Position numbers and translations under genes: made by a program. A DNA stretch of 64,000 nucleotides from the NCBI GenBank assembly GCA_964476185.1, contig CAYYZO010000006.1:16529-80528 (forward strand). The letters are read 5' to 3'. How positions within the stretch are numbered: the first letter of the stretch is position 1; each line of letters opens with the position of its first letter. The stretch comes from an uncultured Myxococcales bacterium (lineage in GTDB: Bacteria > Desulfobacterota > Binatia > UBA1149 > CAITLU01). Of this stretch, positions 3,047 to 41,301 are shown piece by piece. The notes under the pieces were generated by a model that saw only the letters and a program-made list of their open reading frames with translations, ran no database searches and was not told where the DNA came from.

Positions 3047-3066
3047 ACGAGCGACGGAGACGGCCG

Positions 3067-4686: not shown

Positions 4687-4742
4687 ACCCGCGCGACGCG
4701 TTTCCCGCGTCGCGACGACCGAGCACCGGAGGAACGATCGCC

Positions 4743-9148: not shown

Positions 9149-9158
9149 GGCACCGCGC

Positions 9159-9929
9159 TCACGACGAAAGCGACGGCGCGACGGCCGCCCTGCGCGACGG
9201 CCGCGCCCACTGCGAGGCAAGGGCGTGGGCTCGGGCGAGGTCCTCGGGGACGTCGATCTCCGCGTAGCCGAGTCCGTCCACCGGCACCGTGCGGACGAGC
9301 CCGCGCAACGCCAGCCGCTCGACTGCCGAGAGGTACCAGCGTCGTTCGGCGCCGGGTTCGCGCGAGACCTCGCGCAGCGCCTCGGCGAACAGGGTCGGAC
9401 CTTCGTCGCGCCAGATCGAGACGCCGATGGCTTCGCCGGAGACGCCATCGGTGGGCAGGTGCTTGCCGATGTGGTCGAGCCACCCGAGGCCGCTCGCCAC
9501 CTTCATGTCGTCCTCGTCGTAGGCCGGCTTGGCGGTCACCGCCACGCCGGCGATCACGCCACGCGCGGCGCAGAGCCACGCGAGGAGGGCCGGGTCGACG
9601 AGCGTGTCGCCGTTCAGGAGGAGGAAGTCCTCGTTCATCTCGGACGCGGCAGCGAGGCAGCTCACGAGGTTGTCGGCGCGCTCGAAGTCGGGGTTGAACA
9701 ACGTGCGCGTCCGAAGCCGTCCGGGCGCGCGGAGCGCGAGGTGCCGCACGACGCCCGCGGCGCCGAACCCCGTGACGACGACGGCCTCGGTGACGCCGCA
9801 CGCCTCGAGGGCGTCGAGCTGCCAGTCGAGCACGCTGCGGCCCGCGATCCGCAACAGGCACTTCGGGCGGTCGAGCGTGAACGGGAGCAACCTCTTCCCG
9901 CGCCCGGCACTGAGCACGATGGCTTTCAT
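9159..9929 (-). CDS. LicC/IPCT-family CTP:phospho-alcohol cytidylyltransferase (nucleotidyltransferase)
   Basis: MKAIVLSAGRGKRLLPFTLDRPKCLL is the G-x-G-x-R nucleotide loop. ...LFNPDFERADNLVS...LNGDTLVD...GVSIWRDEG...YAEIDVPEDLARA matches LicC (FNDKYADYNNFYSL / GVSFWD / IYEIDSVQDY). ATG 9929 overlaps the upstream stop (ATGA). Confidence 0.8.
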   Translation of the reverse strand: MKAIVLSAGRGKRLLPFTLDRPKCLLRIAGRSVLDWQLDALEACGVTEAVVVTGFGAAGVVRHLALRAPGRLRTRTLFNPDFERADNLVSCLAAASEMNEDFLLLNGDTLVDPALLAWLCAARGVIAGVAVTAKPAYDEDDMKVASGLGWLDHIGKHLPTDGVSGEAIGVSIWRDEGPTLFAEALREVSREPGAERRWYLSAVERLALRGLVRTVPVDGLGYAEIDVPEDLARAHALASQWARPSRRAAVAPSLSS

Positions 9930-11149
9930 GTCTGTCCCCTCGCTTCTTCCAGTGTCCCGAGCACCGGAGCAGGTCGTGCGGCGAACGGTCGGGCATGGAC
10001 CGGCAGGTGGCGAGCATCGCACGGCAGCGCGGCCAGCCACGGTTCGAGTCGATGTCGGCGAAAGCGCAGCCAGCCGGCTTGCGACACGCGCAGGACGAGA
10101 AGCACGGAGCAGGCCGCGGTCCATGCCGCGACGGCGACGAGGCCGTGATCGGGCCGGCCGGCGATCGCGAACGCGCTCAGCAGCAGCAGGTTCGGGTTCC
10201 GGCGCGCCAGGACGAGGCGGAAGTAGGAGTCGGCCGGGCGCCATGCGAACAGGGAGAATCCCGCCAGGAGTCCTTCGAAGCACCCCTCGGCGAGCCGGCC
10301 CGCCACGTAGCCGGCGAGGATGACGGAGAACGCGGGCGCGGGATCGAAGCCTTCGATCACTCCGGCGGCGCCCCAGCCCCAGGCGAGATACCACAGCGGC
10401 GGGTGCAGCAGGTCGAGCACGTGATCGAACAGGTGCCCGAGCCGTGACGACGTGACGGTGACGCGCGCGAGCTTGCCGTCGACGGTGTCCAGGAACGTCA
10501 TCGCCCACGCCATCGCGAGGCCACCGGCGAAGTCGCCGACCGCGAAACGCCAGGTCGCGGCGATCGCCAGAACCCAACTCGCCGTCGTGACGGTGTTCGG
10601 CGACAGACCCAGCCGCGCGCAGATGCCGGTGACCAGCCGGGCCGGGGCGGGCCAGACCCATTTCGTGACGAGATCGGTCACCCCTTTGTACGCGCCGTCG
10701 AACAGGTAGCGGGCCAGCGTCCGGGCCTGGTCGCGCCGGATCGGGATGGCGGCGGCGGCCGAAGCCTTGAGCATGGGCCCGGTCCAGGCGTTGGAGAGGG
10801 ACGCCGGCGTTTCGAGATGGATCCGGCCGAGCGATTGGAGAAGTGCCCGACCTTCGATGACCTCGCGCGCCGTGGCCGCGGCCTCGCAGGACACGTGCGC
10901 GGCGACGGGAACGGAGTACGCTTGCGCGCCCGTGGCAAGCAGCACGCTCCCCGGTCGCGCGAGCATCGACCGGAGCAGGCGGTCGTCGAACAACCAGTCG
11001 CCGCGGACGAGGAGCGTGCTGGCGGCCTCGCCGTCGGCCGCGCCGACGACGGCTCCCGCCGCGCGCAACTGACGCTCGAGGCGGGTGGCGCCGTCGAGTC
11101 CCCACAGTCGCACGGTGGAATTGCCCACGATCGTGGCGTTCGTCTTCAC
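9926..11149 (-). CDS. CDP-alcohol phosphatidyltransferase with about 130-aa cytoplasmic N-terminal extension
   Basis: The family motif D-x2-DG-x2-AR...G-x3-D-x3-D is present as FLDTVDGKLARVTVTSSRLGHLFDHVLDLL, within at least 5 predicted TM helices. GTG 11149 (VKTNATIVGNST...) overlaps the gpmA stop as GTGA. An alternative internal start MLKASAAAAIP would remove the extension. Confidence 0.7.
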   Translation of the reverse strand: MKTNATIVGNSTVRLWGLDGATRLERQLRAAGAVVGAADGEAASTLLVRGDWLFDDRLLRSMLARPGSVLLATGAQAYSVPVAAHVSCEAAATAREVIEGRALLQSLGRIHLETPASLSNAWTGPMLKASAAAAIPIRRDQARTLARYLFDGAYKGVTDLVTKWVWPAPARLVTGICARLGLSPNTVTTASWVLAIAATWRFAVGDFAGGLAMAWAMTFLDTVDGKLARVTVTSSRLGHLFDHVLDLLHPPLWYLAWGWGAAGVIEGFDPAPAFSVILAGYVAGRLAEGCFEGLLAGFSLFAWRPADSYFRLVLARRNPNLLLLSAFAIAGRPDHGLVAVAAWTAACSVLLVLRVSQAGWLRFRRHRLEPWLAALPCDARHLPVHARPFAARPAPVLGTLEEARGQT

Positions 11150-11913
11150 GGGCGTCCTTCGGCTCGGGGGCGGGCCTCGGTCAACGGGGTCGTCGGCCGG
11201 AGCCTCGCATCGTCGCGGTCGAACCGGAGGATGCGGGGGCGCCCGCGGCCGAACCCGAGAAACGGCGGCTCCTCTTCGAGCAGCCAGAGCAGCACCTGCA
11301 GCAGGTTCCTGTGCGACACCACGAGCACGTGGCGGCCGTCGGCCAGTTCCGGGACGATGTGCTCGCGCCAGCACGGCAGAACGCGCATGGCGACGTCGCG
11401 CAGGCTCTCGGCGTGGGGCAGCAGGTGCCGGTCGATGCCCGCATACCGTGCATCGCGGTGGGGAGAGCGCGGATCGGATTCCGACAGCGACGGCGGACGC
11501 TCGCGGGCGCGGCGACGACAGCGCAGCACGCGACGCGGGCCGTAGCGCATCGCCGCTGCCCACGGGGTGAGTCCCTGCAGTGCACCGTAGTGGCGTTCGT
11601 TCAGTCGCCAGCAAGGGCGGATCGGTACGCCGGGTTGTCCGCGCGCGGCCAGCGCGATCTCCGCGGTGTCGATCGTGCGGCCGAGCATCGACGTGAAGCA
11701 GACGTCGACGGGCGGGACGTCCCCGCGCAGCGCCCGCCCGGCGTCGGCGGCTTCGAGCCGGCCGCGCGCGCTCAGTCCGATGTCTTCCCAGCCCGTGAAG
11801 CGAAGAGAACGGTTCCAGCGACTCTGGCCGTGTCGCAGGAGCGTAAGGACGGCCGGCGGAGCGACGGTCCGCGATTCCGACGGGATCGTGGGGAGGACAG
11901 GGAGTGCGCGCAC
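11146..11913 (-). CDS. gpmA: 2,3-bisphosphoglycerate-dependent phosphoglycerate mutase
   Basis: LTLLRHGQSRWNRSLRFTGWEDIGLSARG, WRLNERHYGALQGL, DPRSPHRDARYA and VVSHRNLLQVL are near-identical to E. coli GpmA blocks (LVRHGESQWN..., WKLNERHYGALQGL, AAHGNSLRAL). GTG start at 11913; the true start may be a few codons downstream. Confidence 0.85.
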   Translation of the reverse strand: MRALPVLPTIPSESRTVAPPAVLTLLRHGQSRWNRSLRFTGWEDIGLSARGRLEAADAGRALRGDVPPVDVCFTSMLGRTIDTAEIALAARGQPGVPIRPCWRLNERHYGALQGLTPWAAAMRYGPRRVLRCRRRARERPPSLSESDPRSPHRDARYAGIDRHLLPHAESLRDVAMRVLPCWREHIVPELADGRHVLVVSHRNLLQVLLWLLEEEPPFLGFGRGRPRILRFDRDDARLRPTTPLTEARPRAEGRP

Positions 11914-12198
11914 TACGCTCTCCGCTCAGGACCCCGCGCGTCGCGTGAACGACCCGCCGTCCTGACGTCTCCGCCTTCGCCGCGGAACCCCGTGCAACCA
12001 CCGCACCATCGCGGGAGATGCTAGGCCGCCGCCGCGCGAGCGCCCATGACGGATGTCATGGTGACGCTCCGCGTCGTGGCGCGCAAACCGGCGGCACGGC
12101 GGGATGTAGCGCACCTGTCAGCGCTGATTAGCGATCCTGTGCTCCTGCGCGGCGGCGACGGCCCGTGCGTGCCGCGCGCCCGGCCCCGGCCGGTCGTC

Positions 12199-13815
12199 TC
12201 AGGGGCATCCGCCGACTCCCGGCGTGTACGTCGTCTGGGGATCGCTCGCGCAGTACAGCGTGACGGCGGATTGCAGCTGGAGCCGGCCCGGGCCGGGCAG
12301 GCCGACGACGGTGTTGACCGAGGCCGAAGAGGTCGGCGGCGAGCAGAACGTTCCGCCGACGTACGGCACGTAGGGGTTGGGCATGCCCTGGGTCACGATC
12401 GGATCCAGGAAACAATCGCGTCGCTCCACCAGCGTGCAGGTCCCCGCGTCGATCCCCAGCGTCGCCGGCTCGCAGTCGACGTTGCTCCCGCATCCGATCA
12501 GTCCGGTGCCTTCGGCGCGCAGTACCATGTCGCAGTACAGGTCGTCGGGACCGACGGCGCACAAGCCTTCCTCGCCGCCGACGTCGTCGCACTGGCCGGT
12601 GTCGCACGCGTTCGGCAGTGTCAGCGAGCCGCTGCCGTTGCTCGCACAGGCGCCGGCGGACAGGGCCTCGCACTCGGCGTGGCTGTTGCATGCGATCGTC
12701 GGATCGCCCGTGCAGAGCCGGCACGGGCACAACAGGTCACTGCCGGGGCCGTCGGTCGCGCACGGAACGTTCGCATGGAGTTCGTCCCGGCCGGTCGCCA
12801 GGCGCGTCTCGATGCGCAGGCCGGGGCCCGTGATGTTCGCACCGGCGAGCGGGTAGCAATCGAGGCTGTAGAGCGCGCCGGTCGGCGGCACGAACGTCGC
12901 GTTGTACGCCTGCGCGTCGCAGGTCTGTCCGGCGTTGGCGCCGCCGACGCAGGTCCCTCCGCGCTGCCCGTCGGCCGGCGTCGGGTCGTCAACGCAGAGT
13001 GGGCAGGGCTGCAGCAGGGAGATGCCGAGGTAGATCTTCTCTGCGAGATGAAGGTTGATGAACCCCGAACCCTCGTCGACGTTCACGTCGCCGTCGGGCT
13101 GGGAGGCCAGCGTGTTCAGCACGCAGACGGGCGTGTTGCCGGAAGACAGCGGCAGGGGCGGCCCGAAGTGGCAGATGCACTCGGCGCCGCCGCAGAACTG
13201 CTCGTCGGGCCCGGCGACCGTGAAGCACGGCTGGCGGTTGTCGTTCTCGCACCGGCAGTTCCCGAGCGAGGGGTCGTGGCCGGTCACCTCGCATTGTCCG
13301 CACGGAGCCGGCCCTTCGCAGCCGAGGAACACGCGCGCCGGAACCGGGTCGTCGGTGTCGTAGTCGTGCGAGAGGCCGGTCCATCCGACGTCGGCCTCGG
13401 TCCCGGTGCGGCAGCGTCCGAGGGTCGTGTCGCACACGGAAAAGGGCGCGCAGTCGGAGTTCGAGGCGCAGGCGCCACGGATCTTGGAGAACAATGCGAA
13501 CTGGGCGACGGACGGGCACCCGCTGTCGTCCGGCTCGCAGGCAGGGCAGTCGAGGGTGACGTCGAGGCCGACGGCGAGGCGGAGAACGGTCAGTGCGTCG
13601 GTGCTGGTCGTCTCGCCGGAATCGTTCACGTCGCAGACGCAGAGGTCGCACGACTCCAGATCGACGGACGTACGCAGCACGAAGAGTGCATCGGAGGCGT
13701 CGGCCGGATCGTGGAGCGGCATGCCGCAGTCGCCCACGTCGGCGCCGGCGCGGCCAGCGACGGCGAACAGCAGGAGCGAGGCGAGCAAGAGCTTCATCCG
13801 CTTCTCGAGACCCAT
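12199..13815 (-). CDS. secreted cysteine-rich protein with N-terminal two-repeat dockerin-like (EF-hand-like Ca-binding) segment; function unknown
   Basis: Signal peptide MGLEKRMKLLLASLLLFAVAGRAGA with a GGAGG RBS 7 nt upstream of ATG 13815. Dockerin-like repeats HDPADASDALFVLRTSVDLES and CDVNDSGETTSTDALTVLRLAVGLD span about 13561-13713. The remainder has about 50 Cys in a CxxC/CxC-rich module ending ...TLYCASDPQTTYTPGVGGCP. It is a paralog of 26883-29291. Confidence 0.7.
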   Translation of the reverse strand: MGLEKRMKLLLASLLLFAVAGRAGADVGDCGMPLHDPADASDALFVLRTSVDLESCDLCVCDVNDSGETTSTDALTVLRLAVGLDVTLDCPACEPDDSGCPSVAQFALFSKIRGACASNSDCAPFSVCDTTLGRCRTGTEADVGWTGLSHDYDTDDPVPARVFLGCEGPAPCGQCEVTGHDPSLGNCRCENDNRQPCFTVAGPDEQFCGGAECICHFGPPLPLSSGNTPVCVLNTLASQPDGDVNVDEGSGFINLHLAEKIYLGISLLQPCPLCVDDPTPADGQRGGTCVGGANAGQTCDAQAYNATFVPPTGALYSLDCYPLAGANITGPGLRIETRLATGRDELHANVPCATDGPGSDLLCPCRLCTGDPTIACNSHAECEALSAGACASNGSGSLTLPNACDTGQCDDVGGEEGLCAVGPDDLYCDMVLRAEGTGLIGCGSNVDCEPATLGIDAGTCTLVERRDCFLDPIVTQGMPNPYVPYVGGTFCSPPTSSASVNTVVGLPGPGRLQLQSAVTLYCASDPQTTYTPGVGGCP

Positions 13816-14083
13816 TCCGGCACCTCCGTGTGTGGTTGTTTGCCAGCAACAGTGTGACGTCCTCGATCGGGTATTGGCAACGGAGAACACGGAGAAAGCC
13901 GGTACGCAGTGTCCGGCAGTAAGTGGATAGTCTCACTTGGCGTCAGGTCGTACGGGGTCGACGGTGGCGGAAGGACGCTGGCTCGCCCGATCGAGCGTCG
14001 AGCGCGCAGGACGCGTGAGGGCGTGGCCTCTCGCGCTTGCGCGGCGTGGATCTACCCGCCGCGCTTCGATGCGCAGCGTCCGG

Positions 14084-15670
14084 TCAGAACCCGTGCGCCG
14101 CGAGCGCTGTCGAGATGCGATCGCGCACGGAAGGGTCGGGGAAGGGGAACGACGCGAGAAAGTCGACGAGACCCAACGTGGGAGCGCGCCGGCGCACTTC
14201 GGCGGCCCATGCGTCGGCGCGTCGGGAGTCGCCTCGCATTGAGTGCGCCGCGACCGCGATCATGGCGATCATCACGTGGGCACCAGGCGAGCGGGCGGCG
14301 AGCTCCGCCCAGGTGGCGCCGTCGTCATGCTGCGAGCGAACGATGTGGGAGAGCGCACGGGTCGCGGTCATCGCGTAGTGCAGGGGATCGAGCGGGCTCA
14401 GCGCCATGGCGGCGTCGGCGTCCCGCTGCCCCTCGCGGCCCCGGCCGGACAGCGTGTGCGTCCAGGCACGCGCGTAGACGCCCTGCGCGTAGTTCGGGCA
14501 CAGCGCGACCGAACGTTCGATCCAGATCAGCGCCGAGTCGAGGTCGCGCTCGAGCCAATGGGCCCGACCCATCGAGAAGTTCGCGAACGGGTCGAGGGAG
14601 TCGAGCTCCACCGCGCGCTCCGCCGCGCTGCGTGCGAGCGCGGCCGAAGCGGCGTCGTGCGGCACGAAGTGCAGGAACGCATTCTGGAAATGCACGAAGG
14701 AGCGACCCGCGTGGGCGCGGGCGAAGGAGGGGTCGAGGTCGATCGCCCGGTCGAAGCATTCTCCGGCAAACGCGTTGTCGCTGCGGTTGAAGCGGAACAT
14801 GTGGTGGCGGCCGAGGTGGTAAGCAGTCCACGCATCGAGATGCCCGGGGCTCGCTTTGGCTACGGTGGCCTCGTGCTCCGGGATACGCAGTTCCAGCGCG
14901 GAGACGACGCTGGATGCGATCCGTGCCGGCGTCTCCTGCACGTCGTCGAGCGAGATGCCGTACCGCTCGGCCCAGAGTACGTTGGCGTCGTGCGTTTGCG
15001 TGAGTCGTACCGAGACGACGAGTCGACGACCGCTCGTCTCGACGCTGCCGGTCACCACGTAGCGGACGCCGAGCAGGCGCCCGACATCCGCCGGATCGAC
15101 GGCGTCCGGCCGCAGCCGAAACGACGACCCGCGTGCGACGACGAACAGCCAGCGCAGTCGCGCGAGCTCGGTGATCAACTCGTCGGCCAGCGCCTCGGCC
15201 ACGGCGCCGTCCGGGGTCGGGTCGCCGACCCGCCCGAGCGCGAGCACCGCGATCGAAGGCCGTCCCGACTGCGCCGGCGCCTCGGCGTCTCGCGGTTCGT
15301 CGCCGCCTCGCGCGACCCGGGGCACCGCGCGTACGTCGGCCACGAAGCGGAACCCGCGCCCGTGCACGGTCCGGATCAGCCGCTGCGAGCGGCCGTCGTC
15401 GCCGATCGCGCGGCGGGCCGACTTGACGCGGCTGGAGATCGCGGCGTCCGAAACGACGCGGCCGTCCCAGACCTTCTCGACGATCTCGTCGCGCGAGACG
15501 AGTCGGTCGGCGTTCTCGACGAGCAGGAGAAGCAGCGCGAAGACCTGCGGCTCGACAGGGACGGGGCTGTCTTCCCGGCGCAGCTCGGCCCGCGCCGGGT
15601 CCAGCTCGAAGGTTTCGAAGCGGTGGATCACGGGCGGGACGATACCCGGAACCGCGCGGCCCGTCTCCAC
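14084..15670 (-). CDS. CadC/OmpR-type winged-helix transcriptional regulator with TolB-like and TPR C-terminal domains
   Basis: FELDPARAELRREDSPVPVEPQVFALLLLLVENADRLVSRDEIVEKVWDGRVVSDAAISSRVKSARRAIGD is a trans_reg_C DNA-binding domain. Downstream is a TolB-N-like region (IAVLALGRVGDPT...VRYVVTGSVE) and TPR-like helices. GTG start at 15670. Confidence 0.75.
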   Translation of the reverse strand: METGRAVPGIVPPVIHRFETFELDPARAELRREDSPVPVEPQVFALLLLLVENADRLVSRDEIVEKVWDGRVVSDAAISSRVKSARRAIGDDGRSQRLIRTVHGRGFRFVADVRAVPRVARGGDEPRDAEAPAQSGRPSIAVLALGRVGDPTPDGAVAEALADELITELARLRWLFVVARGSSFRLRPDAVDPADVGRLLGVRYVVTGSVETSGRRLVVSVRLTQTHDANVLWAERYGISLDDVQETPARIASSVVSALELRIPEHEATVAKASPGHLDAWTAYHLGRHHMFRFNRSDNAFAGECFDRAIDLDPSFARAHAGRSFVHFQNAFLHFVPHDAASAALARSAAERAVELDSLDPFANFSMGRAHWLERDLDSALIWIERSVALCPNYAQGVYARAWTHTLSGRGREGQRDADAAMALSPLDPLHYAMTATRALSHIVRSQHDDGATWAELAARSPGAHVMIAMIAVAAHSMRGDSRRADAWAAEVRRRAPTLGLVDFLASFPFPDPSVRDRISTALAAHGF

Positions 15671-15772
15671 GTCGTCTCCACGAGATCTTCAAGCCTTCCG
15701 GTCGGGCTGCGGTTACACAGGGAGCACGGCCGCCGGAATCGGTCCGGGGGCTGAAGCCGAGGAGAAGATCCC

Positions 15773-15997
15773 ATGCCGATGGTGACGATCGACGTGATCA
15801 AGGACGTGTTCAGCCCGGAGCAGAAGCAGGCCCTGATGGAACGGGTGACCGAAGCGGTGGTCAGCGTGGAGGGGGAGAACCTGCGCCCCGTGACCTGGGT
15901 GCGCGTGCAGGAGTTCGAACAGGGGGACTGGGCGATCGGGGGCCGCCGCCTGCTCGCGGCCGACGTCCACGCCATGAAGGCCGGCAAGGCAGCCTGA
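15773..15997 (+). CDS. tautomerase family protein (4-oxalocrotonate tautomerase-like, Pro1)
   Basis: [34 protein letters not shown] is the canonical N-terminal Pro beta-alpha-beta fold. The product is 74 aa. Confidence 0.7.
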
Positions 15998-16001
15998 ACG
16001 T

Positions 16002-16039
16002 CGCCAGGCCGGCCGCCCGCTGGAGCGGCCGGCCTGGCG
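16002..16039. terminator. perfect 15-bp GC-rich inverted repeat (bidirectional terminator-like hairpin) between convergent genes
   Basis: CGCCAGGCCGGCCGC - 8 nt loop - GCGGCCGGCCTGGCG lies between the tautomerase stop (15997) and the ferredoxin stop (16042). No U-tract is present. Confidence 0.45.
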
Positions 16040-16041
16040 AA

Positions 16042-16236
16042 TCAGTCTTCCGCGATCGAGATGGCCTGCCGCGGGCAGAGCCGCACGGCCTCCTTCAGCT
16101 TGTCGCGCATCGACTCGGGAGGGTTCTCGACGAGGACGTTCAGGCTGTCCTGGTCGTCCACCTGGAACACTTCGGGCAGGATGCGCATGCAGACCGCGTT
16201 GGCTTCGCACAGATCGTAGTCGACGACGACTTTCAT
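16042..16236 (-). CDS. 3Fe-4S/4Fe-4S single-cluster ferredoxin (P450 redox partner type)
   Basis: MKVVVDYDLCEANAVCMRILPEVFQVDDQD...RLCPRQAISI has the CxxxxxC...CP spacing of FdxD/Fdx-type ferredoxins. It lies immediately downstream of the P450. Confidence 0.8.
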   Translation of the reverse strand: MKVVVDYDLCEANAVCMRILPEVFQVDDQDSLNVLVENPPESMRDKLKEAVRLCPRQAISIAED

Positions 16237-16270
16237 GATTCCCGGACCTTAGCGGTTGCGGAAGTCGCAG

Positions 16271-17584
16271 TTAAGCGGAGGCCGCACCGGCCTGTTCCTG
16301 GTGGAACGGGCAGCCGCCGGAGGTCGTCGCCGATGCCTCGGAGCGCTTCGCCGGAGTGTACCGTACCGGCATCTCCTTGACGCCGTGGATGAAGTTGGAG
16401 CGGAGGAAGCGGATCGGGCCGGCCGCCTCGATGTCCGGGACCCGCGTCAGCAGTTCGGTGAAGATCGAGCGCAACTGGCAGCGCGCGAAGCTCGCGCCGA
16501 GGCAGTAGTGCTCGCCGATGCCGAGGCCAAGGTGCTCGGGGATGCGGCGCGTGACGTCGAAGCGGTCGGGGTCCTCGAACACATCCTCGTCGCGGTTGGC
16601 CGACGGATACCACATCACGACCTTGTCGCCTTTCTTCAGCGTCTTGCCGCGCAGCTCGAAGTCCTCGGTCAGGGTGCGCCGGAAGTGCATCACGGCCGGG
16701 TTGTAGCGAAGGAACTCCTCGACGGCGTTCGGGATCAGCGACGGGTTCTCGACCAGCTTCCTGCGCTCCTCGGGGTGCTCCATCAGGAGGCGCATGCCGT
16801 GCGCGGTCAGCGTGCGGGTGGTCTCGTTTCCCGCGATCATCAGCATCAGGAAGAAGTAATTGTACTGGAACGCGTCCATCGACTCGCCGTCGACCTTGCC
16901 GTGGTAGAGCGCGCTCGCGAGGTTGTCCTTCGGGCACTCGGCGACGAGGTCGCGCAGTTTCTGCCCGTACATGCAGACTTCGGCCGCCGCGATCCGTCCC
17001 TCGTCGAAGGAACCGATCAGTTCCGGATCGTCGAAGCCCACGAGCCGGTTGCTGAGGTCGAACAGCCGCGCCTGGTCTTCTTCCGGCACGCCGACGATCT
17101 CCATGATCGTCTTCATCGGCAGCTGGGCGGCCACGTCCATGACGAAGTCGCAGCTGCCCCGCTCGACGATGTCGTCGACGATCTCGCGCGCGAGGTCGCG
17201 GATGTGCGGCTCCAGGCGCTCGATCATCCGGGGAGTGAAGTTGTGGGCGACCAGGCGCCGGTACTTCACGTGCGTCGGCGGGTCCATGTTGAGCATCATG
17301 GACCGCGTTCCGTCGAGGTCCTCGCCGTGCAGGTCGAAGATGTTCGTGCCGCCCTCCCACGACGAGAACAGCATCGGGTTGCGCGACATCATCTTGATGT
17401 CCTCGTACTTCGTGATCGACCAGAAGCCGCGCCCGTTGCGCTCGACCTCGTGGCGCGTGTCGTTCCAGTGCACCGGATCCTCCCGGCGCAACCGGCGGAA
17501 GTAGTCGTGCGGGAATCCGTCGGCGAACGAGTCGGGGTTCGCCAGGTCGAGGTCGGGAAGGCTGGAAGCATCGGTTCGGGTCAT
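16271..17584 (-). CDS. cytochrome P450 (CYP125/CYP142/CYP124-like)
   Basis: Heme-binding loop LGLGIGEHYCLGASFAR, the EXXR block EEFLRYNPAV and the I-helix MLMIAGNETT. N-terminal MTRTDASSLPDLDLANPDSFADGFPHDYF. Confidence 0.9.
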   Translation of the reverse strand: MTRTDASSLPDLDLANPDSFADGFPHDYFRRLRREDPVHWNDTRHEVERNGRGFWSITKYEDIKMMSRNPMLFSSWEGGTNIFDLHGEDLDGTRSMMLNMDPPTHVKYRRLVAHNFTPRMIERLEPHIRDLAREIVDDIVERGSCDFVMDVAAQLPMKTIMEIVGVPEEDQARLFDLSNRLVGFDDPELIGSFDEGRIAAAEVCMYGQKLRDLVAECPKDNLASALYHGKVDGESMDAFQYNYFFLMLMIAGNETTRTLTAHGMRLLMEHPEERRKLVENPSLIPNAVEEFLRYNPAVMHFRRTLTEDFELRGKTLKKGDKVVMWYPSANRDEDVFEDPDRFDVTRRIPEHLGLGIGEHYCLGASFARCQLRSIFTELLTRVPDIEAAGPIRFLRSNFIHGVKEMPVRYTPAKRSEASATTSGGCPFHQEQAGAASA

Positions 17585-17710
17585 CGCTGCAACTCCCTGT
17601 GTGGTCTTGGGCGCCGGGCCGTCCTAGACTCCGGGTTCGCTCGAGCGCGCGGTCCGGCACGGAGCCGGGCCGCTGCGCGAGGATCGAGCGTGAACGAACG
17701 TTTGTTGGGT

Positions 17711-17718
17711 AACAGGTT
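17711..17718. promoter_or_regulatory. AACAGGTT core (KstR-like AACnnGTT half-palindrome) in divergent P450/tetR intergenic region
   Basis: ...TTGGGTAACAGGTTTGCC... at 17705-17722. The same AACAGGTT core recurs upstream of the second TetR gene at 41302-41311. It is short and unsupported by other evidence. Confidence 0.2.
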
Positions 17719-17835
17719 TGCCGAGGTGCGGCAAGACCTGAATTGTCCCCGGTGCGGGCGGCTCGCCGCTTCGAGAGCGGCCGAATCCCCGGTTGATCTC
17801 GCGGCTCCGCCCCGGCGGGCCGCACAGGAGACGCC

Positions 17836-18474
17836 ATGACGACCGGAACCATCGATCCCGCGGCCGGGGACGTCCGGACGACCCGGGAACGCATCCTCGA
17901 TGCCGCCGAGCAGGTGTTCGCCGAAAAGGGCCTCGGGGCGGCGCCGGTCCGGGACATCGCGGCGCGGGTCGGGCTCAATCCGGCGAGCCTCTACAACCAC
18001 TTCGCCGGCAAGGAAGAACTCTACGAGGCCGTGCTCGAACGGGGGCTGACCCCCGTGCTCGAGATGCTCTCGGACCTCATGAGCGGCCAGCGCACCCGGG
18101 ACCGCGAGGAGAAGGCGATCGACCGCGTGGTGCTCCACTTCGCGGCCAGCCCGAACCTGGCCAAGCTGATCCACTACGAGACCCTGTCCGGCGGGGAGCG
18201 GCTCGCGAAGATCGCCGGGCGCTGGTTCGAGCCGGTCTACCAGCGCGGCTTCGAGGTGCTGAACGCGAGCCGGGCCGCCGAGCTCTGGAGCGAGCAGGAG
18301 ATCCCGCTGCTGCTGCTGGCCTTCCAGAACCTGATCGTCGGCTATTTCGCGATGGTCCCGCTCGTGCAGCAGGTGTTCGGGTTCGATCCTGTCTCCCCCG
18401 AAGGAATCGAGCGCCAGACCGCCTTCCTGCACAAAGTCGCCTACCTGCTGGTCCCGCCCCGCGACGGAGAGTGA
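17836..18474 (+). CDS. TetR/AcrR-family transcriptional regulator (divergent from P450)
   Basis: RERILDAAEQVFAEKGLGAAPVRDIAARVGLNPASLYNHFAGKEELYEAV is the TetR HTH. The product is 212 aa. Confidence 0.85.
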   Translation: MTTGTIDPAAGDVRTTRERILDAAEQVFAEKGLGAAPVRDIAARVGLNPASLYNHFAGKEELYEAVLERGLTPVLEMLSDLMSGQRTRDREEKAIDRVVLHFAASPNLAKLIHYETLSGGERLAKIAGRWFEPVYQRGFEVLNASRAAELWSEQEIPLLLLAFQNLIVGYFAMVPLVQQVFGFDPVSPEGIERQTAFLHKVAYLLVPPRDGE

Positions 18475-20474
18475 GCGAGGCTCGCGAACGCGGCCGCGGC
18501 AAACGGACCCGCCGCCGGGGACGCCTGCTGGTCGTCCTCGCGTTCGTCGTCGCGCTGGCCGCGCTGGTCCGGGCGCTGCTCGGCCTCTATTCCGCGGACC
18601 TCTTCCTCGTCGTCGCCCGCGAGGCCGCGCGCGGCGGCGGACTCCAGATTCTTCTCGAGGAAGAGCCGACGGTGAACCTCGCCGGTTTCGAGGCTCGAAG
18701 CGTCACGGTGCGGGACGCCTCGGGCGAGGAGCTGCTCCGGGCAGGTGGCATCTCCGGGCAGGTCCAATGGTTCCTGCACGACCCCTGGATCGGCCTGTCG
18801 CTCACGCTTCGTGACACCCTCGTTCCGTGGCGCGAGAGTTCCGGCGCCAGCCGGGCGGAGCGACCGCAGGGGCCGCTCGTTCCGTCGGTCCCGGCGCAAC
18901 TGGCGGGCGTCGTGCTGGAGCGCGCGCGTGTCGAACTCGGCGAGGGACGCGCGGTGCAGCTCGACGCCGAGTTTCGGTTCGACGGCGGAATCGCGGCCGA
19001 AGTCCGGCGGCTCGACTACGAGGAGCTGACCGGCGAGATCGTCGCCGAGAAGCTGGCGGGCTCGCTTCGCCTCGATCGCGCAGCGGCGCCGGCCGAGTCG
19101 TGGAACGTGGATGTCGCGGTGCGCTCCGGTAGCGCGCTGGTCGGGCCGGTGCTGCTCGATCTCGAGACCCACGCATTCACCGTCTCGGCGAACATCGCCC
19201 GCGATGCGGGCGCATCGCTGCTGGTTTCCGGCGCGACCGCGACGTTCGGACGCCTCCTGCGCGGCTCGGGCCAGCTGCGGTGGTCCGCGGACGGGGGCGT
19301 CGAGGGCGCGGACGTCCAACTCGCCACGAGCACGCTTGGCGACGCGTTCGTCACGCTCGTGCGCGAGCCGTTCTCCGGCGTGGCGCCGCCGCTGGCGGGG
19401 ACGTCGGTGGAGGGCCGCGCCGAGTTCGCGCTGCGTTTCGACCGACCGTCGGCCGGGGCTGCGGTCGCCACGCTCTCTGTTTCCCTGCCGACGCTGCGCG
19501 CCCCCGCCGTCGAGGCCGAGCGGCTCGAGGCGGTCCTGCCGTGGAGCGGCGTCGCGGTTCCCGGCCGCGCTGCGCGCGAGGGCCGTCTGCGCGCCGAAAG
19601 GTTGTCGCTGATGGGACTCGGCTGGACCGGCGTCGCCGCGCCGCTCGTTGCGATACCCGGGCGGCTTCGCACCACCGCCGCCCAGGATTGGAAGAGCGAC
19701 GCCGGGACGATTCACCTGGCTGAGCTTGCGGTCGTCGAGGACTCGTCCGGCTTCCGGTTGGAAGCCGTCGTGGACCGGCTCGAACTCGACGTCGCGCGGC
19801 TCGGTGCTGCCCTCGGCGTCCAAGGCCTGGACGGGCGTTTGACCTCCGGTCGCAGCCGCCTTCGTCTGGACGCCGAGACGCTGCGCAGTGACGCCACGCT
19901 GACGGTCTCCGCATTCGGCGGCACGATCGAGCTGTCGAACCTGTTCGCCGACCATCCGTTCCGGCGCGTTCCCGAGTTCGGTTTGGACGCGAGGCTCGCG
20001 GAGGTCGATCTCGGGTCGCTGACGTCGTGGCTCGGCGCCGGCCGCGTGACCGGCGTGCTCGAAGGAACCGTTCGCGGTCTGGTCATCGCGGACGGCCAGC
20101 CGCAGGCGCTCGACGCGGACCTGCACACGGTCGAGCGACGCGGGGTCTCGCAGCACGTGGACGTTCGCGCGATCGTCCAGCTCGGGGTCCTCGGCGGCGG
20201 CGACAGCGGGTCGCTGACGGGGACGCTCCTCCGGTTCGTGGACCGTTACCGCTATGCAAAGCTCGGCGTGCGCTGCCGGTTGCGGAACGACGTGTTCGAA
20301 CTGCGCGGGGTCGAGACGCAGGGCGGCAAGGACTACATCGTCAAGGGCAGCCTGCTGCCGCCGTCGGTCAGCGTGGTCAGTCATTCGCAAGTCGTGTCGT
20401 TCTCGGAGATGCTTCGACGCATCGAGAGGATCACGGCGATGGACGAAGGAGGAACCCCCGATGCGGAGCCATGA
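18471..20474 (+). CDS. YdbH-like AsmA-family protein (large periplasm-spanning, N-terminal TM anchor)
   Basis: GTG 18471 overlaps the tetR stop (GTGA). TM helix LLVVLAFVVALAALVRALLGL; long beta-rich repeats; C-terminal ...GVRCRLRNDVFELRGVETQGGKDYIVKGSLLPPSVSVV. The domain assignment rests on the gene order YdbH then YnbE/YdbL. Confidence 0.65.
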   Translation: MSEARERGRGKRTRRRGRLLVVLAFVVALAALVRALLGLYSADLFLVVAREAARGGGLQILLEEEPTVNLAGFEARSVTVRDASGEELLRAGGISGQVQWFLHDPWIGLSLTLRDTLVPWRESSGASRAERPQGPLVPSVPAQLAGVVLERARVELGEGRAVQLDAEFRFDGGIAAEVRRLDYEELTGEIVAEKLAGSLRLDRAAAPAESWNVDVAVRSGSALVGPVLLDLETHAFTVSANIARDAGASLLVSGATATFGRLLRGSGQLRWSADGGVEGADVQLATSTLGDAFVTLVREPFSGVAPPLAGTSVEGRAEFALRFDRPSAGAAVATLSVSLPTLRAPAVEAERLEAVLPWSGVAVPGRAAREGRLRAERLSLMGLGWTGVAAPLVAIPGRLRTTAAQDWKSDAGTIHLAELAVVEDSSGFRLEAVVDRLELDVARLGAALGVQGLDGRLTSGRSRLRLDAETLRSDATLTVSAFGGTIELSNLFADHPFRRVPEFGLDARLAEVDLGSLTSWLGAGRVTGVLEGTVRGLVIADGQPQALDADLHTVERRGVSQHVDVRAIVQLGVLGGGDSGSLTGTLLRFVDRYRYAKLGVRCRLRNDVFELRGVETQGGKDYIVKGSLLPPSVSVVSHSQVVSFSEMLRRIERITAMDEGGTPDAEP

Positions 20475-21087
20475 CGACGTTTCTTCCGGATGGACCCGAT
20501 GGCGCTCGCGCCTGCTGCTGCCCGTGCTCGCCGCCGCCGCGTTTTCGGCCTGCGTGACGGTCAACATCTACTTCCCGGCTCCGGAGGTCCGGCAGGCCGC
20601 CGAACAGATCGTCGAGGAAACCTGGGGATCGGCCGAGGCGCCGGCCGCGCCTGGGCCGCAGTCGCGCGTGCTGCGCAGCCTGTTCTTGGCGGCCTCGGCG
20701 TTGCTGTCGCCGGCCGAGGCCCACGCAGCCGACGTGGACGTGAACGTCTCGACAGCCTCGATCCGCGCGCTGAAGGAGAGCATGCGCACGCGGGCAGCCG
20801 AACTGAAGCCGCACCTGGCGAGCGGCCTCGTCGGCATCGGCCGCGACGGCATGCTCGTGGAGCGCGACGGCTCCGGCGCGGACCTGGCGACCAAGGCCAA
20901 GGTGAGGCGGCTCGTCGATGCCGAGAACCGCGATCGCGAGGCCCTCTACCGCGAGATCGCGACCGCGAACAACTACGGCAGCGAGCGCGTCGACGACATC
21001 CGGCGCATTTTCGCGCAGACCTGGAAGGACAAGGCCGAGCCCGGCTGGTGGATCCAGGACGCGAGCGGCGCCTGGAAACGCAAGTAG
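20461..21087 (+). CDS. YnbE-like lipoprotein fused to YdbL (DUF1318)-like domain
   Basis: Signal peptide plus lipobox ...LLLPVLAAAAFSAC followed by VTVNIYFPAPEV (YnbE-like). The C-terminus ASGLVGIGRDGMLVER...KAKVRRLVDAENRDREALYREIATANNYGSERVDDIRRIFAQTWKDKAEPGWWIQDASGAWKRK matches the YdbL/DUF1318 consensus. The start overlaps the ydbH-like 3' end by 14 nt. Confidence 0.7.
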   Translation: MRSHDDVSSGWTRWRSRLLLPVLAAAAFSACVTVNIYFPAPEVRQAAEQIVEETWGSAEAPAAPGPQSRVLRSLFLAASALLSPAEAHAADVDVNVSTASIRALKESMRTRAAELKPHLASGLVGIGRDGMLVERDGSGADLATKAKVRRLVDAENRDREALYREIATANNYGSERVDDIRRIFAQTWKDKAEPGWWIQDASGAWKRK

Positions 21088-23378: not shown

Positions 23379-23792
23379 TCACGCGAACACGACGATCGCC
23401 GAGCCCGGCGTCGTTTTCTTCCCCTCCGCGTTCTCGGTCCAGATGTCGAGCTCGACGACCTTTTCCCCCGCGTCGTTCGACTTCTTCTTCACGGTTCCCT
23501 TGCAGACGAATTCCTTGTTCGGCAGGTCCATGCCGCGGTACTGGCAGGAGATCTTGCGGATTCGGCCGGCATGCCCGAGCCAGTTCGACACGTACTCTCC
23601 GAGCGAGGCGTACTTGAACCGGCCGTGCACGATGATCGACCCGATCTGCTTGGCCTGCGGGAAGGCGTAGTCGTGGTGCAGCGGGTTGAAGTCGCCGCTC
23701 CCGGCCGAGTACTTGACGAGCGTCTGCAGCGTCGGCGTCTTGCGCATCTCGGGGAGCGCGTCCCCTTCGCGGATGTCTTCGAATCGAGCCAT
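23379..23792 (-). CDS. MaoC-like (R)-specific enoyl-CoA hydratase, hotdog fold (C-terminal-type subunit)
   Basis: MARFEDIREGDALPEMRKTPTLQTLVKYSAGSGDFNPLHHDYAFPQAKQIGSIIVHGRF has the NPLH motif. Confidence 0.8.
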   Translation of the reverse strand: MARFEDIREGDALPEMRKTPTLQTLVKYSAGSGDFNPLHHDYAFPQAKQIGSIIVHGRFKYASLGEYVSNWLGHAGRIRKISCQYRGMDLPNKEFVCKGTVKKKSNDAGEKVVELDIWTENAEGKKTTPGSAIVVFA

Positions 23793-23803
23793 GTCCCCGT
23801 GCC

Positions 23804-24291
23804 TCAGTAATAGATGACCTGGGAGGTCTGCCTGGCGGCGATCCTGCCCGTGGCCTTGTTGGTGTACGTGGTGACCATCGTGACGAGCAGCATCCTGCCG
23901 CCGAGGGCGGGGCTCGGCGCGACCTTGAGGTCGACGAGCTTCTGCACCGCGACGAGCGTGTCGCCGGCGCAGATGTCGTCGAAGGTCTCGGTCTCGGTGC
24001 CGCCGTCGAGCAGTCCCTTGAGGCCGTGGTTCACGTTCGGAATGCCTTCGGTCGGGCCGCTGAACGTGTCGCTGCAGCGTCCGGGCAGGAACACGGCCGT
24101 CCCGAGGTAGGTGGGCGGCGCGGGGAGACTCCGGTAGCCGGCCTGCCGGGCCGCCTCGACGTCGAAGTAGACGGGGTCGGTGTATCCGACCCCGCGCGCG
24201 AACATCCGCACGCTGGTGGTCGTGACCTCGAAGTCCCAGGGCGGCGATTCCTTGCCGATCTGGGCCTTCATGTCGTCGGTGAGATCGATGG
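23804..24291 (-). CDS. MaoC N-terminal-like hotdog protein (non-catalytic partner subunit of heterodimeric hydratase, ChsH1/ChsH2-N-like)
   Basis: [68 protein letters not shown] start at 24291 (alternative ATG 24261). It is adjacent to and co-oriented with the MaoC gene. Confidence 0.7.
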
Positions 24292-24690
24292 TTTCGGCCA
24301 CGGGGTGCTCCTCGGCGGGGCCGTCGCGCGTTCGGTCGGATGGGGGGCGGTCGAAAACGGACGGCGGGTTTCGGCAGTCGCGATTCAAGCAGCCCGCCTG
24401 GGGTAGAGCAACGCAGCGAAGGTGCCGAAAACGCTGGACGGGCGCGCGGGGTAGGGCCGACGGGGGCGGGCGTGGGGTCGACGCCCGACCGAGGGCGCGG
24501 TCGCCGGTTGGGCGTAGCGCGTCCGGCGCGGCGAGCGGAGTGCTCCTGGCCGGACCGGGGCGCCGCCGGATCGGTCGTGGCTCGCTTTCGGCGCGGCGTT
24601 CGGTTAACTGCAAGGTCGTGCACCGCGGCGGGCGGGCGCCAAATCCAGCAGTCCGGCCCGACCGGCCGGCCGATCGAACAGGAGAGCAGC

Positions 24691-25881
24691 ATGGGCAGGA
24701 AAGTATTCGTCGTCGGTGTCGGCATGACCAAGTTCGAGAAGCCCGGAGCGAAGGCCTGGGACTACCCGGACATGGCGAAGGAGGCCGGCACGCGCGCGCT
24801 CGAGGACGCCGGGGTGTCGTTCGACAAGATCGAGCAGATCGCGGTCGGTTACTGCTACGGCGACTCGACCGCCGGACAGCGCGCCGTCTACGAGCTCGGG
24901 ATCACCGGCGTGCCGATCTACAACGTGAACAACAACTGCTCGACCGGTTCGACGGCGCTCTTCATGGCCAAGCAGTTCATCGAGGGCGGCCTCGCCGACT
25001 GCACCCTCGCGCTCGGCTTCGAGAAGATGGAGAAAGGCTCCCTCGGGATGAAGTTCCAGGACCGCACGAACCCGATGGACAAGCACTTCGGCGAGATGGT
25101 CGCGCTGCGCGGCTTCGCGAGCGCCCCGGGCGCGCCGCAGTTCTTCGGCAACGCCGGCATCGAGCACATGGAGAAGTACGGGACGACGGCCGAGTCGTTC
25201 GCGCGCATCGGCCAGAAGAACCACAAGCACTCGGTCAACAACCCGTACTCGCAGTTCCGCGACGAGTACTCGCTCGAGGACATCCTGAACGCGCCGACCG
25301 TCTACGGGCCGCTGACGAAGCTGCAGTGCTGCCCGACCTCCGACGGCGCGGGCGCCGCGATCCTCGCCAGCGAGGACTTCGTGAAGAAGCACGGCCTCGA
25401 GAAGACCGCGGTCGAGATCGTCGGCATGGCGATGGCCACGGACTTCCCGTCCACGTTCGAGGAGCACTCGTGCATCAAGCTCGTCGGCGCGGACATGACG
25501 CGCAAGGCGGCCGAGAAGGTCTACGAGCAGTCCGGCCTCGGACCCGACGACGTGCAGGTCGTCGAACTGCACGACTGCTTCTCGTGCAACGAGCTGATCA
25601 CCTACGAGGGCCTGAAGCTGTGCCCGGAGGGCAAGGGCGGGGAGCTGATCGATTCCGGCGCCGTCACCTACGGCGGCAAGTGGGTCGTGAACCCGTCCGG
25701 CGGCCTGATCTCGAAGGGCCACCCGCTCGGCGCCACGGGCCTCGCGCAGTGCGCGGAGCTGAACTGGCAGCTGCGCGGCCAGGCCGACAAGCGCCAGGTC
25801 GAAGGCGCGCGGGTGGGGTTGCAGCACAACCTCGGTCTCGGCGGCGCGGCCGTCGTGACGATGTACCGTCGCGAGGCTTGA
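24691..25881 (+). CDS. SCP-x-type thiolase (Ltp3/Ltp4-like propanoyl-CoA C-acyltransferase family)
   Basis: [19 protein letters not shown]...[14 protein letters not shown]...[18 protein letters not shown]...[34 protein letters not shown] lies upstream of ATG 24691. Confidence 0.85.
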
Positions 25882-26100
25882 AGCGGCGCTGCTCGACGCC
25901 GGCGCCGGTCGTCCCTCGGGTCGGCCGGCTGCCGGCGGCGCCGCGACCTGGACAGGGCGGTTCGGGGCGTTCGGGCAACCGTTGCGACATTTCACCATCG
26001 ACTTCACGGCGGAGCCGCCGATCGCAAGGAGGCGCTCCTTCATTCGCCGGCACGGGCGCGCATCCGCGCCGGGCTACCGCGACGGGAGAACGAGGGACCC

Positions 26101-26787
26101 ATGGCCGATCTCGACCTGAGCCGCGACGGGGACGTGTTCGTCCTTCGCATGAAGAGCGGTGAGAACCGCTTCAACCCCGATTTCATCGCCGCGATGAACA
26201 CCGCGCTCGACGAGGTGGAGGCGGCGCGCGGCGCGGCCGCGCTCGTCACGACCGGCGACGGCAAGTTCTACTCGAACGGCCTCGACCTCGACTGGCTCTC
26301 CCAGCAGGAGCACGCGGTCGCGATGAAGTTCCTCGCGACCGTCCTGCAGTTGTTCGCGCGCGTCGTCGCGTTCCCGATGGCGACCGCCGCGGCGTGCAAC
26401 GGCCACGTCTTCGCCGGAGGAGCGATGCTCGCGCTCGCGCACGACTGGCGCGTCATGCGCCGCGACCGCGGCTTCTTCTGCCTGCCGGAACTGGACCTCG
26501 GCATGCCGCTGCCGATCGGCATGCGCACGCTGATCAAGGAACGCATGAGTCCGGCGGCCTTTCGCGACACCGTGCTGACGGCAGGACGCTTCGGGGCCGA
26601 CGACTGCGTGCGCCTCGGCTTCGTCGATCAGGCGGCCGACGAGGCCGACGTGCTTTCCGCCGCGATCGAGCGCGTGCGGCCGCATGCCGGCAAGAGCCGC
26701 GACGCGTACCGCGCGCTGAAGCGCGGCATGTATGCGGAGATGATCGAGGACCTCACGGGACCGCGCGCGGTCGCGATTCCGCAATAA
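26101..26787 (+). CDS. enoyl-CoA hydratase/isomerase family protein
   Basis: VFVLRMKSGENRFNPDFIAAMNTALDEVEAA...CNGHVFAGGAMLALAHDWRVM is a crotonase fold. The product is 228 aa. Confidence 0.8.
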   Translation: MADLDLSRDGDVFVLRMKSGENRFNPDFIAAMNTALDEVEAARGAAALVTTGDGKFYSNGLDLDWLSQQEHAVAMKFLATVLQLFARVVAFPMATAAACNGHVFAGGAMLALAHDWRVMRRDRGFFCLPELDLGMPLPIGMRTLIKERMSPAAFRDTVLTAGRFGADDCVRLGFVDQAADEADVLSAAIERVRPHAGKSRDAYRALKRGMYAEMIEDLTGPRAVAIPQ

Positions 26788-41291: not shown

Positions 41292-41301
41292 GGGCAAATT
41301 A

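Follow-up and report, generated by a model that had tools for sequence, protein, structure and literature searches.

A 64-kb stretch of bacterial DNA (part of contig CAYYZO010000006.1; this whole stretch of 64,000 nt is called the window here) carries two genes for TetR-family regulators next to oxygenase genes. The first, tetR1, is divergent from a cytochrome P450 gene that is followed by a ferredoxin gene, and the second, tetR2, lies 23 kb from the first and precedes the gene of a KshA-like Rieske oxygenase. An initial annotation had pointed out that the two loci share the 8-mer AACAGGTT, with an AAC..GTT core like that of the operators of KstR, and had proposed one KstR-like regulon in a non-actinobacterial high-GC lineage. 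Our analysis favors a different arrangement: with a probability of roughly 0.7, the window holds two independent TetR circuits and not one regulon. TetR2 belongs to the KstR family and has a canonical KstR-type operator at its start, whereas TetR1 resembles KstR in its DNA-binding region only and has, as its predicted operator, a different 20-bp palindrome that accompanies the P450 gene from Binatia to a Myxococcota metagenome-derived genome and soil metagenomes. The lineage had been characterized correctly: the window has a G+C content of 70%, and the named relatives found by protein search at 84–88% identity to TetR1 and TetR2 are Candidatus Binatia.

TetR2 and its KstR-type operator

TetR2 matched KstR over its full length. 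Its top four PDB matches were KstR structures (5aqc/5cw8, source organisms M. tuberculosis and M. smegmatis; E ~1e-25, residues 3–198), and KstR2 matched over the helix-turn-helix (HTH) only. With GTLYRYFRSK, its recognition helix departs from that of KstR (GTLYRYFPSK) by a single residue, and the best NCBIfam match was transcr_KstR with 125.7 bits over model positions 8–183 of 185. The KstR-family domain and full-length similarity were therefore both found, at a score below the equivalog cut-off of 280 bits, for which reason we call TetR2 a KstR homologue and not a curated equivalog. IMG labels some of its relatives "cholesterol catabolism regulator".

Upstream of the GTG start of tetR2, the coding strand reads TGGAACCTGTTCTAATTTGCCCGTG, which holds a perfect TnnAACnnGTTnnA. 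A −10-like TCTAAT (41303→41298) overlaps this operator and ends 6 nt before the GTG; the mycobacterial kstR promoter has the same layout of operator and −10 (Kendall et al, 2007; PMC1995591). In three Binatia contigs (L161–L163; L numbers denote the compared loci), the operator is conserved as TGGAAC(C/A)TGTTCTA, and the tetR2–kshA pair is kept together with its flanking synteny. The KshA-like protein matched KshA (4qdc) at full length with E 7e-45; its gene starts within a 4-nt overlap with the tetR2 stop (40653–40656) and is predicted from this arrangement to be translationally coupled to tetR2. The reading of the second regulator as a KstR-type protein beside an oxygenase is thus upheld by PDB, NCBIfam and matrix results alike. 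In L169 (GCA_016218925.1, 2960–3000), from a more remote relative, the KstR-like gene has no adjacent kshA, and its operator, TGCCACCTGTTCTA (11.8 bits), is decayed in one half.

We scored the window with a symmetrised KstR matrix derived from the 47 sites in Table 3 of Kendall et al (2007; PMC1995591), for which the training minimum is 12.9 bits and the median 23.9 bits. The site at 41300 scored 22.6 bits; the next best site anywhere in the window reached 8.6 bits, and no other scored 9 bits or more. Within the 64-kb window, the scan thus picked out a single site (41300–41313) and passed over the box at 17711. A regulon extending across the DUF35, thiolase and MaoC clusters, as had been suggested, found no support within the window, where the best scores were −3 or lower both upstream of the cluster of DUF35, thiolase, acyl-CoA ligase and enoyl-CoA hydratase genes (304–5555) and upstream of that with the MaoC pair, a thiolase and an enoyl-CoA hydratase (23379–26787).

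As a positive control, the matrix detected KstR-type sites of 14.7–25.5 bits in 13 of 80 genome loci, where they precede the P450 homologue by 40–290 nt. Most of the 13 are from Acidimicrobiia or Actinomycetes, and one, L003, was binned as "uncultured Myxococcales". By these scores, KstR-type control of this P450 clade is common elsewhere and absent in the window. The sites were seen at 2549–2583 in L003, 3882–3949 in L018, ~3897–3932 in L029–L042 and 3951–3964 in L054/L056, and also in L060, L061 and L010; L003 is a 4-kb contig with two adjacent KstR sites.

TetR1 and its predicted operator

TetR1 showed no full-length similarity to KstR or KstR2 in PDB or NCBIfam comparisons. Its PDB and NCBIfam matches covered the N-terminal DNA-binding region only (approximately residues 5–110), the best being PsrA/PA3006, the KstR2 HTH and ScbR. 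KstR2 (4w1u, 4w97) matched over residues 6–73 only, KstR was not among the 60 listed PDB matches, and the NCBIfam KstR model gave 22.6 bits. On the NCBIfam PsrA model (NF053516) TetR1 scored 49.3 bits, through the HTH only and without reaching the cut-off of 300. TetR1 and TetR2 are 34% identical over 50 HTH residues, with nothing beyond. An AlphaFold2 (AF2) model of TetR1, with a predicted local distance difference test (pLDDT) score of 87, has a generic TetR fold that matched RutR, CecR, FasR, FadR and PsrA at template modelling (TM) scores of 0.6–0.74; KstR was not among the top 50 fold matches. Similarity to KstR therefore extends over the full length of TetR2, whereas that of TetR1 to KstR and KstR2 is confined to the HTH. 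By these comparisons TetR1 is a member of an unnamed TetR subfamily with a PsrA-like HTH, and 1316 homologues were found at E ≤ 1e-20.

Orthologous TetR1 loci were gathered by a metagenome scan, a protein search and context look-ups. The divergent region between the P450 gene and tetR1 (251 bp, 17585–17835) has one inverted repeat, the quasi-palindrome GTGAACGAACGTTTGTTGGG, which is unique in the window and has a 14-bp core, AACGAACGTTTGTT, at 17693–17706. This core is identical in six of the seven Binatia relatives that have the surrounding block described below (L165 has one substitution) and was kept though the flanking intergenic sequence diverged. In a Myxococcota metagenome-assembled genome (MAG), L001, the core is again identical and the element reads GTAAACGAACGTTTGTTCGT. 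GTAAACAAATGTTCGTTyAC or a near variant lies upstream of tetR1 in 9 of 11 distant loci, mostly 17–18 nt after a TTGAC −35. From Binatia to the Myxococcota MAG and soil metagenomes, the palindrome accompanies TetR1 orthologues in every case of linkage to the P450 gene. Four of the TetR1 loci fetched have no visible P450 gene; L084, L167 and L168 lack the palindrome, and the fourth, L087, has only a partial trace, CGTTTGTTTGG; for L084 and L087 this applies to the sequence fetched. Because its presence and absence track the P450 gene, we regard the palindrome as the signature of a local repressor's operator tied to the P450. In L095 a second perfect 16-bp palindrome, GCGAACGATCGTTCGC, lies immediately upstream of the usual operator (~1380–1420), which suggests double operators in some members of the TetR1 family.

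Linkage of tetR1 to the P450 gene is seen in nearly all orthologous loci. The two genes are divergent in the Binatia loci L081, L082, L085, L086 and L165, divergent and separated by a 4HBT thioesterase gene in L164 and L166, and in tandem (tetR1→P450) at 42–48% identity in L001, L089 and L091–L097. The thioesterase gene (2179–2856 in L164, 1813–2472 in L166 and 2286–2996 in L167) sits in some Binatia relatives between the P450 or ferredoxin gene and tetR1. L167 and L168 retained the ferredoxin gene and tetR1 and cleanly lost the P450 gene. On the other side, the tetR1 stop overlaps the GTG start of orf667 (667 aa) in the sequence GTGA at 18471–18474, and this overlap makes co-transcription of tetR1, orf667 and the DUF1318 gene probable. 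The order tetR1–orf667–DUF1318 recurs in L081 and L164–L166, and orf667 also follows tetR1 in L082 and L083; lnt comes next, convergent, in the window, L081 and L164–L166. TetR1 may also govern this envelope-related operon.

The box shared by the two loci

The shared box is present as had been noted. One copy, GGTAACAGGTTTG, lies in the divergent region between the P450 gene and tetR1, and the other, AGAACAGGTTCC (41301–41312), ends 9 nt upstream of the TetR2 GTG start (41291, minus strand); the 8-mer itself occupies 17711–17718 and 41303–41310. In the window, AACAGGTT occurs in 4 copies versus 0.28 expected from dinucleotide shuffles, and AACNNGTT in 10 copies versus 3.5 expected. The other two copies of AACAGGTT, at 6371 and 19938, are coding, with AAC-CTG-TTC in frame for Asn-Leu-Phe in preferred codons. 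Codon usage thus accounts for half of the copies; the enrichment over shuffles is overstated, and we set it aside. Coding copies of GAACAGGTTC occur at 6359–6381 and 19935–19948, one of them within TCGAACGGGTTGAACAGGTTCGT, and codon usage is their simplest explanation. Only the copies near the TetR genes are intergenic, among 4.6 kb of intergenic DNA.

The proposal that the box is a shared operator of one KstR-like regulon did not hold. The box 14-mer, GGTAACAGGTTTGC (17708–17721), scored 0.06 bits on the KstR matrix versus at least 12.9 for published sites. It lacks the outer T and A, and its inner positions read TAAC and GTTT. Its score was the 49th best in the window and the 4th best among 3862 intergenic positions, and the chance of an equal score in any 251-bp region is ~0.25. 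The AAC and GTT triplets are 97–98% invariant in true KstR sites. Among the seven Binatia relatives, four have the exact 8-mer and three have forms that each destroy AAC or GTT (AACAGTTT in L081, AACAGCTT in L164 and ACCAGGTT in L165), and the orthologous positions scored from −8.7 to 7.5 bits. L164 and L163 are on the same 1-Mb contig, on which the box is broken (AACAGCTT) and the KstR operator is intact. In the distant TetR1 orthologous loci the 8-mer box was not found.

One could still suppose that the box is a low-affinity KstR-like site through which the P450 operon comes jointly under TetR1 and a KstR-type regulon. Such joint control would account for an identical 8-mer that is intergenic only at the two TetR loci and conserved above its flanks, and it has parallels: many P450 homologues elsewhere have KstR sites, mycobacterial cyp125 is in the KstR regulon, and a bound site, TCTGTAACATGTTCTAG, tolerates a GTAAC half-site (PMC1995591). 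We nevertheless consider it very unlikely, given that both half-sites of the box deviate, that it scores far below true sites, that three of seven relatives break a triplet and that a chance match of this quality is not rare in a region of this length. The identity of the 8-mer is also partly coincidental: even at the operator of the KstR-like protein itself, the center varies among relatives (CT or AT), which leaves the AG in the middle of the 8-mer unconstrained. Cores of the form AAC..GTT serve several TetR subfamilies as recognition sequences.

The box, which begins 5 nt past the palindrome core, belongs to a Binatia-specific block of ~45 bp composed of the palindrome, TAACAGGTTT, a spacer and GCGGCAAG. 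Aligned across the clade, the palindrome is followed by GGnTAACAGGTTT, ~9 variable bases and the near-invariant GCGGCAAG at fixed spacing; CGGCAAG (GGGCAAG in L165) is found at this distance in 8 of 8 sequences, while the intervening bases vary. The least probable of the explanations we weighed is that the box is a functionless chance 8-mer that persists through the close kinship of the compared genomes. Its absence from all distant orthologues, its variation in three of seven relatives and the codon-driven origin of the two further window copies are what such a chance element would show; the columns that directly precede the palindrome and those separating the box from GCGGCAAG are, however, largely randomised, yet even at 67% TetR1 identity (L166) both TAACAGGTTT and its distance from GCGGCAAG are retained. 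As judged from these alignments, GCGGCAAG is probably a promoter hexamer, on either strand, and the box is most likely a promoter hexamer or spacer, or an auxiliary PsrA-type half-site of TetR1, and not a KstR operator. For the half-site, the minus strand of the box reads CAAAC-CT-GTTAC, to be compared with the consensus C/GAAAC-N2-4-GTTTG/C of PsrA, a fatty-acid-responsive regulator (PMC13104628).

Read as a promoter, the block offers GTAACA-N18-AAGACC on the plus strand and TTGCCG-N17-TACCCA with an extended TG on the minus strand, the latter paralleling the TTGAC-N17-operator layout of the distant loci. A first model, with the block as the minus-strand promoter of the P450 gene, was made uncertain by L164 and L166, in which the block is parted from the P450 gene by the thioesterase gene. 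The plus-strand reading fits these two loci but has a poor −10. That the block stays with tetR1, and not with the P450 gene, upon insertion of the thioesterase gene speaks for a plus-strand role, though either direction may hold. A second conserved motif stands beside the P450 start, CCTGTGTGGTCTTGG...CGTCCTAGACTC (also spelled CCTGTnTGGTCTTGG...CGTCCTAGACTC), with GTGGTC-N18-TAGACT at 17601–17630. It is kept in the close relatives, in L164–L167 and in L168, of which L167 and L168 have no P450 gene, and probably serves the 4HBT/tetR1 transcription unit as promoter.

These observations raise the question whether TetR1 of Binatia still controls the P450 gene at all, or whether the block only autoregulates tetR1–orf667–DUF1318 and the P450–ferredoxin pair has its own promoter near 17597–17631. 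The behavior of the block in L164 and L166, the separate motif beside the P450 start and the overlap of tetR1 with orf667 are in line with such a loss of control. Nonetheless, the palindrome is missing in L084, L167 and L168, where no P450 gene is seen, even though L167 and L168 still have tetR1 and the P450-proximal motif, and in distant lineages the same operator stands at the promoter of a tetR1–P450 operon. We therefore think a loss of control unlikely and retain TetR1 as the candidate regulator of the P450 gene.

The P450–ferredoxin pair

The best PDB match of the P450 was CYP125MRCA, the reconstructed CYP125 ancestor, with 463 bits and ~51% identity; CYP125A1 (~37%) and CYP124A1 (~39%) tied at ~286 bits. 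Under the P450 nomenclature rule, a protein joins a family when it shares 40% identity or more with one of the family's named members. With the above identities, placement in the CYP125/124 clan is accurate, while the "CYP125-like" label of the initial annotation is borderline when taken as a family assignment. Its translation shows the AGNETT, ExxR and Cys-ligand motifs. Scanning genomes with this P450 returned no close relative, the best match being 55% identical in the Myxococcota MAG (L001).

The ferredoxin gene begins 34 nt downstream of the P450 gene. The cysteines of its product are arranged as C10-E-A-N-A-V-C16 ... C54-P, with no other Cys, so that the second Cys of CxxCxxC is replaced; CxxNxxC...CP is the 3Fe-4S pattern, and the protein is the likely 3Fe-4S redox partner. 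Ferredoxin orthologues follow the P450 in L082, L085, L086, L164 and L165. The earlier view of the two proteins as a redox pair is supported.

CYP125 is a steroid C26-monooxygenase and CYP124 an omega-hydroxylase of methyl-branched lipids. The genomic context here is compatible with steroid C26/C27 hydroxylase activity but not specific for it. Apart from the KshA-like gene, no ring-degradation genes were seen in the 64-kb window. One thiolase-like protein matched generic SCP2-thiolases in the PDB, with no steroid-specific assignment, and a PDB search with one MaoC-like protein gave no match. Steroid-degrading Proteobacteria have been reported to be devoid of Cyp125 and Cyp142 orthologues (Bergstrand et al, 2016; PMC4810484), and this absence lends some interest to CYP125-clan homologues outside Actinobacteria.

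Genomic surroundings

The four-gene layout of the P450 region had been given correctly, as a codon-usage gene map and Pfam scans confirmed (Table 1). The tautomerase gene is convergent with the ferredoxin gene as described, but has no homologue in any related locus, and it stands at the edge of a lineage-specific insertion. In L086 and L165, orthologues of the acyl-CoA ligase and enoyl-CoA hydratase genes at 3067–5555 of the window directly abut the ferredoxin–P450 pair. From this arrangement, the P450 appears to belong functionally with the beta-oxidation cluster, and the ~10.4 kb at 5617–15997 look like the insertion; they encode a GDSL-like open reading frame (ORF), two GT4 glycosyltransferases, a nucleotidyltransferase, a CDP-alcohol phosphatidyltransferase, a histidine phosphatase, an unknown ORF, an OmpR-TPR regulator and the tautomerase.

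The hairpin between the convergent ferredoxin and tautomerase genes is near-perfect (GCCAGGCCGGCCGC...GCGGCCGGCCTGGC; folding energy −45.9 kcal/mol, z = −7.5) and terminator-like, but without a U tract. An Rfam scan of 15000–19000 gave no match. Pfam and NCBIfam scans showed that the window also encodes queA–tgt–yajC–secD–secF, lnt and plsB. At 35802–39724 in the window, and likewise in L163, genes for a PlsB-type glycerol-3-phosphate acyltransferase and a WS/DGAT wax-ester/triacylglycerol synthase adjoin kshA–kstR; in L161, L162 and L169 a WS/DGAT gene is on the same side (in L169 with PlsB too), with a different intervening gene or a missing one. Such neighbors suggest that the KstR module is set in a context of neutral-lipid storage metabolism.

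Table 1. Position, strand and basis of the features discussed (window coordinates; UTR, untranslated region).
Feature	Position	Strand	Basis or remark
Tautomerase, 4-oxalocrotonate-tautomerase family, 74 aa	15773–15997	+	Pfam Tautomerase
GC-rich hairpin between convergent ferredoxin and tautomerase genes	16001–16041		Folding
Single-cluster ferredoxin, 64 aa, three Cys	16042–16236	−	Pfam Fer4_15, Fer4_13, Fer4_19
P450, CYP125/CYP124 clan, 437 aa	16271–17584	−	Pfam p450
Motif CCTGTGTGGTCTTGG...CGTCCTAGACTC beside P450 start, overlapping the P450 5′ UTR	17597–17631	+	Promoter-like, conserved
Predicted TetR1 operator, 20-bp quasi-palindrome GTGAACGAACGTTTGTTGGG	17690–17709		Phylogenetic footprinting
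Box GGTAACAGGTTTG	17708–17720		Inside 17705–17722 of the initial annotation; in the Binatia-specific block beside the operator
GCGGCAAG, second conserved element of the block	17728–17735		Fixed distance from the box
TetR1, TetR-family regulator, 212 aa	17836–18474	+	Pfam TetR_N only
orf667 and DUF1318 gene	18471–21087	+	orf667 without family match
KshA-like Rieske oxygenase	39706–40656	−	Pfam Rieske and KshA_C; PDB
TetR2, KstR-family TetR	40653–41291	−	Pfam TetR_N and TetR_C_20; PDB; NCBIfam
KstR-type operator TAGAACAGGTTCCA (minus strand TGGAACCTGTTCTA)	41300–41313		22.6 bits; fits TnnAACnnGTTnnA

Discussion

From computed homology, synteny, operator conservation and matrix scores we infer the repression, effector, transcript starts and promoter directions of the following scheme. 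In circuit 1 (15998–18474), TetR1 would be a local repressor dedicated to the P450 and its 3Fe-4S ferredoxin. A TetR1 dimer would bind the 20-bp palindrome at 17690–17709 in the divergent promoter region and block transcription until released by an effector, presumably the lipid- or sterol-type substrate of the P450 or an acyl-CoA derived from it. TetR1 would also control its own gene, probably together with orf667 and the DUF1318 gene. The block of palindrome, TAACAGGTTT, spacer and GCGGCAAG would serve as promoter and operator of the circuit. In circuit 2 (39706–41313), the KstR-family repressor would bind TGGAACCTGTTCTA over its own −10 and repress kstR and kshA. A member of the KstR family would be expected to be released by 3-oxo-steroid CoA thioesters.

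Several points weigh against this division into two circuits. The fold comparison of TetR1 offers no clue to an effector. Since the box is conserved above its flanks within the clade, it should have some function, and the scheme assigns it none; weak cross-binding of the KstR-like protein to the box is consistent with its sequence. For L164 and L166, where the thioesterase gene separates the P450 gene from the block, it is not obvious that the P450 gene is controlled directly. Finally, a scan of 15650–18550 for sigma-70 promoters and terminators detected nothing, and what we say of promoters around the P450 gene and tetR1 accordingly comes from conservation.

On a broader view, the window could represent a Binatia toolkit, resembling that of actinobacteria, for oxidation of sterol or isoprenoid side chains, made up of the CYP125-clan P450 and ferredoxin, SCP2-thiolase/DUF35, MaoC and KstR–KshA, with regulation split between a KstR-type repressor and a widespread TetR1 subfamily (>1300 homologues) that would serve these P450s alone, through a conserved 20-bp operator of its own, in Binatia, Myxococcota and soil bacteria. 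We offer this as a tentative and, taken as a whole, doubtful proposal. The co-occurrence of a CYP125-clan P450, KstR and KshA in Binatia is mildly interesting and not by itself evidence of steroid catabolism. A literature search found no paper on both KstR and Binatia and none relevant for KstR with Proteobacteria or Myxococcota; a study of Binatota and steroids (PMC9531527) concerns sterol biosynthesis.

Since several TetR subfamilies have an AAC..GTT core in common, sharing it is not enough to define a regulon. The two loci instead provide two testable regulator–operator pairs in an uncultured phylum. A KstR homologue with a canonical operator outside Actinobacteria would extend the known range of KstR-type control, and the pair of TetR1 and its 20-bp palindrome is a possible marker, or biosensor scaffold, for the lipid that these P450s oxidise. 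Both circuits fit known kinds and leave current concepts unchanged.

Circuit 2 is closest to KstR itself (Rv3574/MSMEG_6042), which TetR2 resembles in its full length, recognition helix, TetR_C_20 domain, TnnAACnnGTTnnA operator over a TCTAAT −10 and KshA-type neighbor; it differs in its host, Candidatus Binatia, and in having one site in 64 kb despite several beta-oxidation clusters. TetR1 and the 17711 box, by contrast, are not KstR-like. The HTH of TetR1 is closest to that of PsrA (PDB 2fbq, NF053516), and its predicted operator also has AAC/GTT(T) half-sites. Unlike in PsrA, the C-terminal domain of TetR1 has no named family, the operator is 20 bp long with a different spacing, and the predicted target is a P450–ferredoxin pair whereas PsrA targets fadBA or rpoS. 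As in the TetR/tetA paradigm, TetR1 has a palindrome in its own promoter region adjoining a putative target gene. The P450 and ferredoxin recall actinobacterial CYP125 and CYP124 with their 3Fe-4S ferredoxins: the P450 is of the same clan, a three-Cys ferredoxin is adjacent, and an acyl-CoA ligase, enoyl-CoA hydratases, MaoC hydratase subunits and SCP2-type thiolases with DUF35 are nearby. They differ from the actinobacterial systems in phylum and in the predicted regulation of the P450, which here would be exerted by TetR1 and not by KstR.

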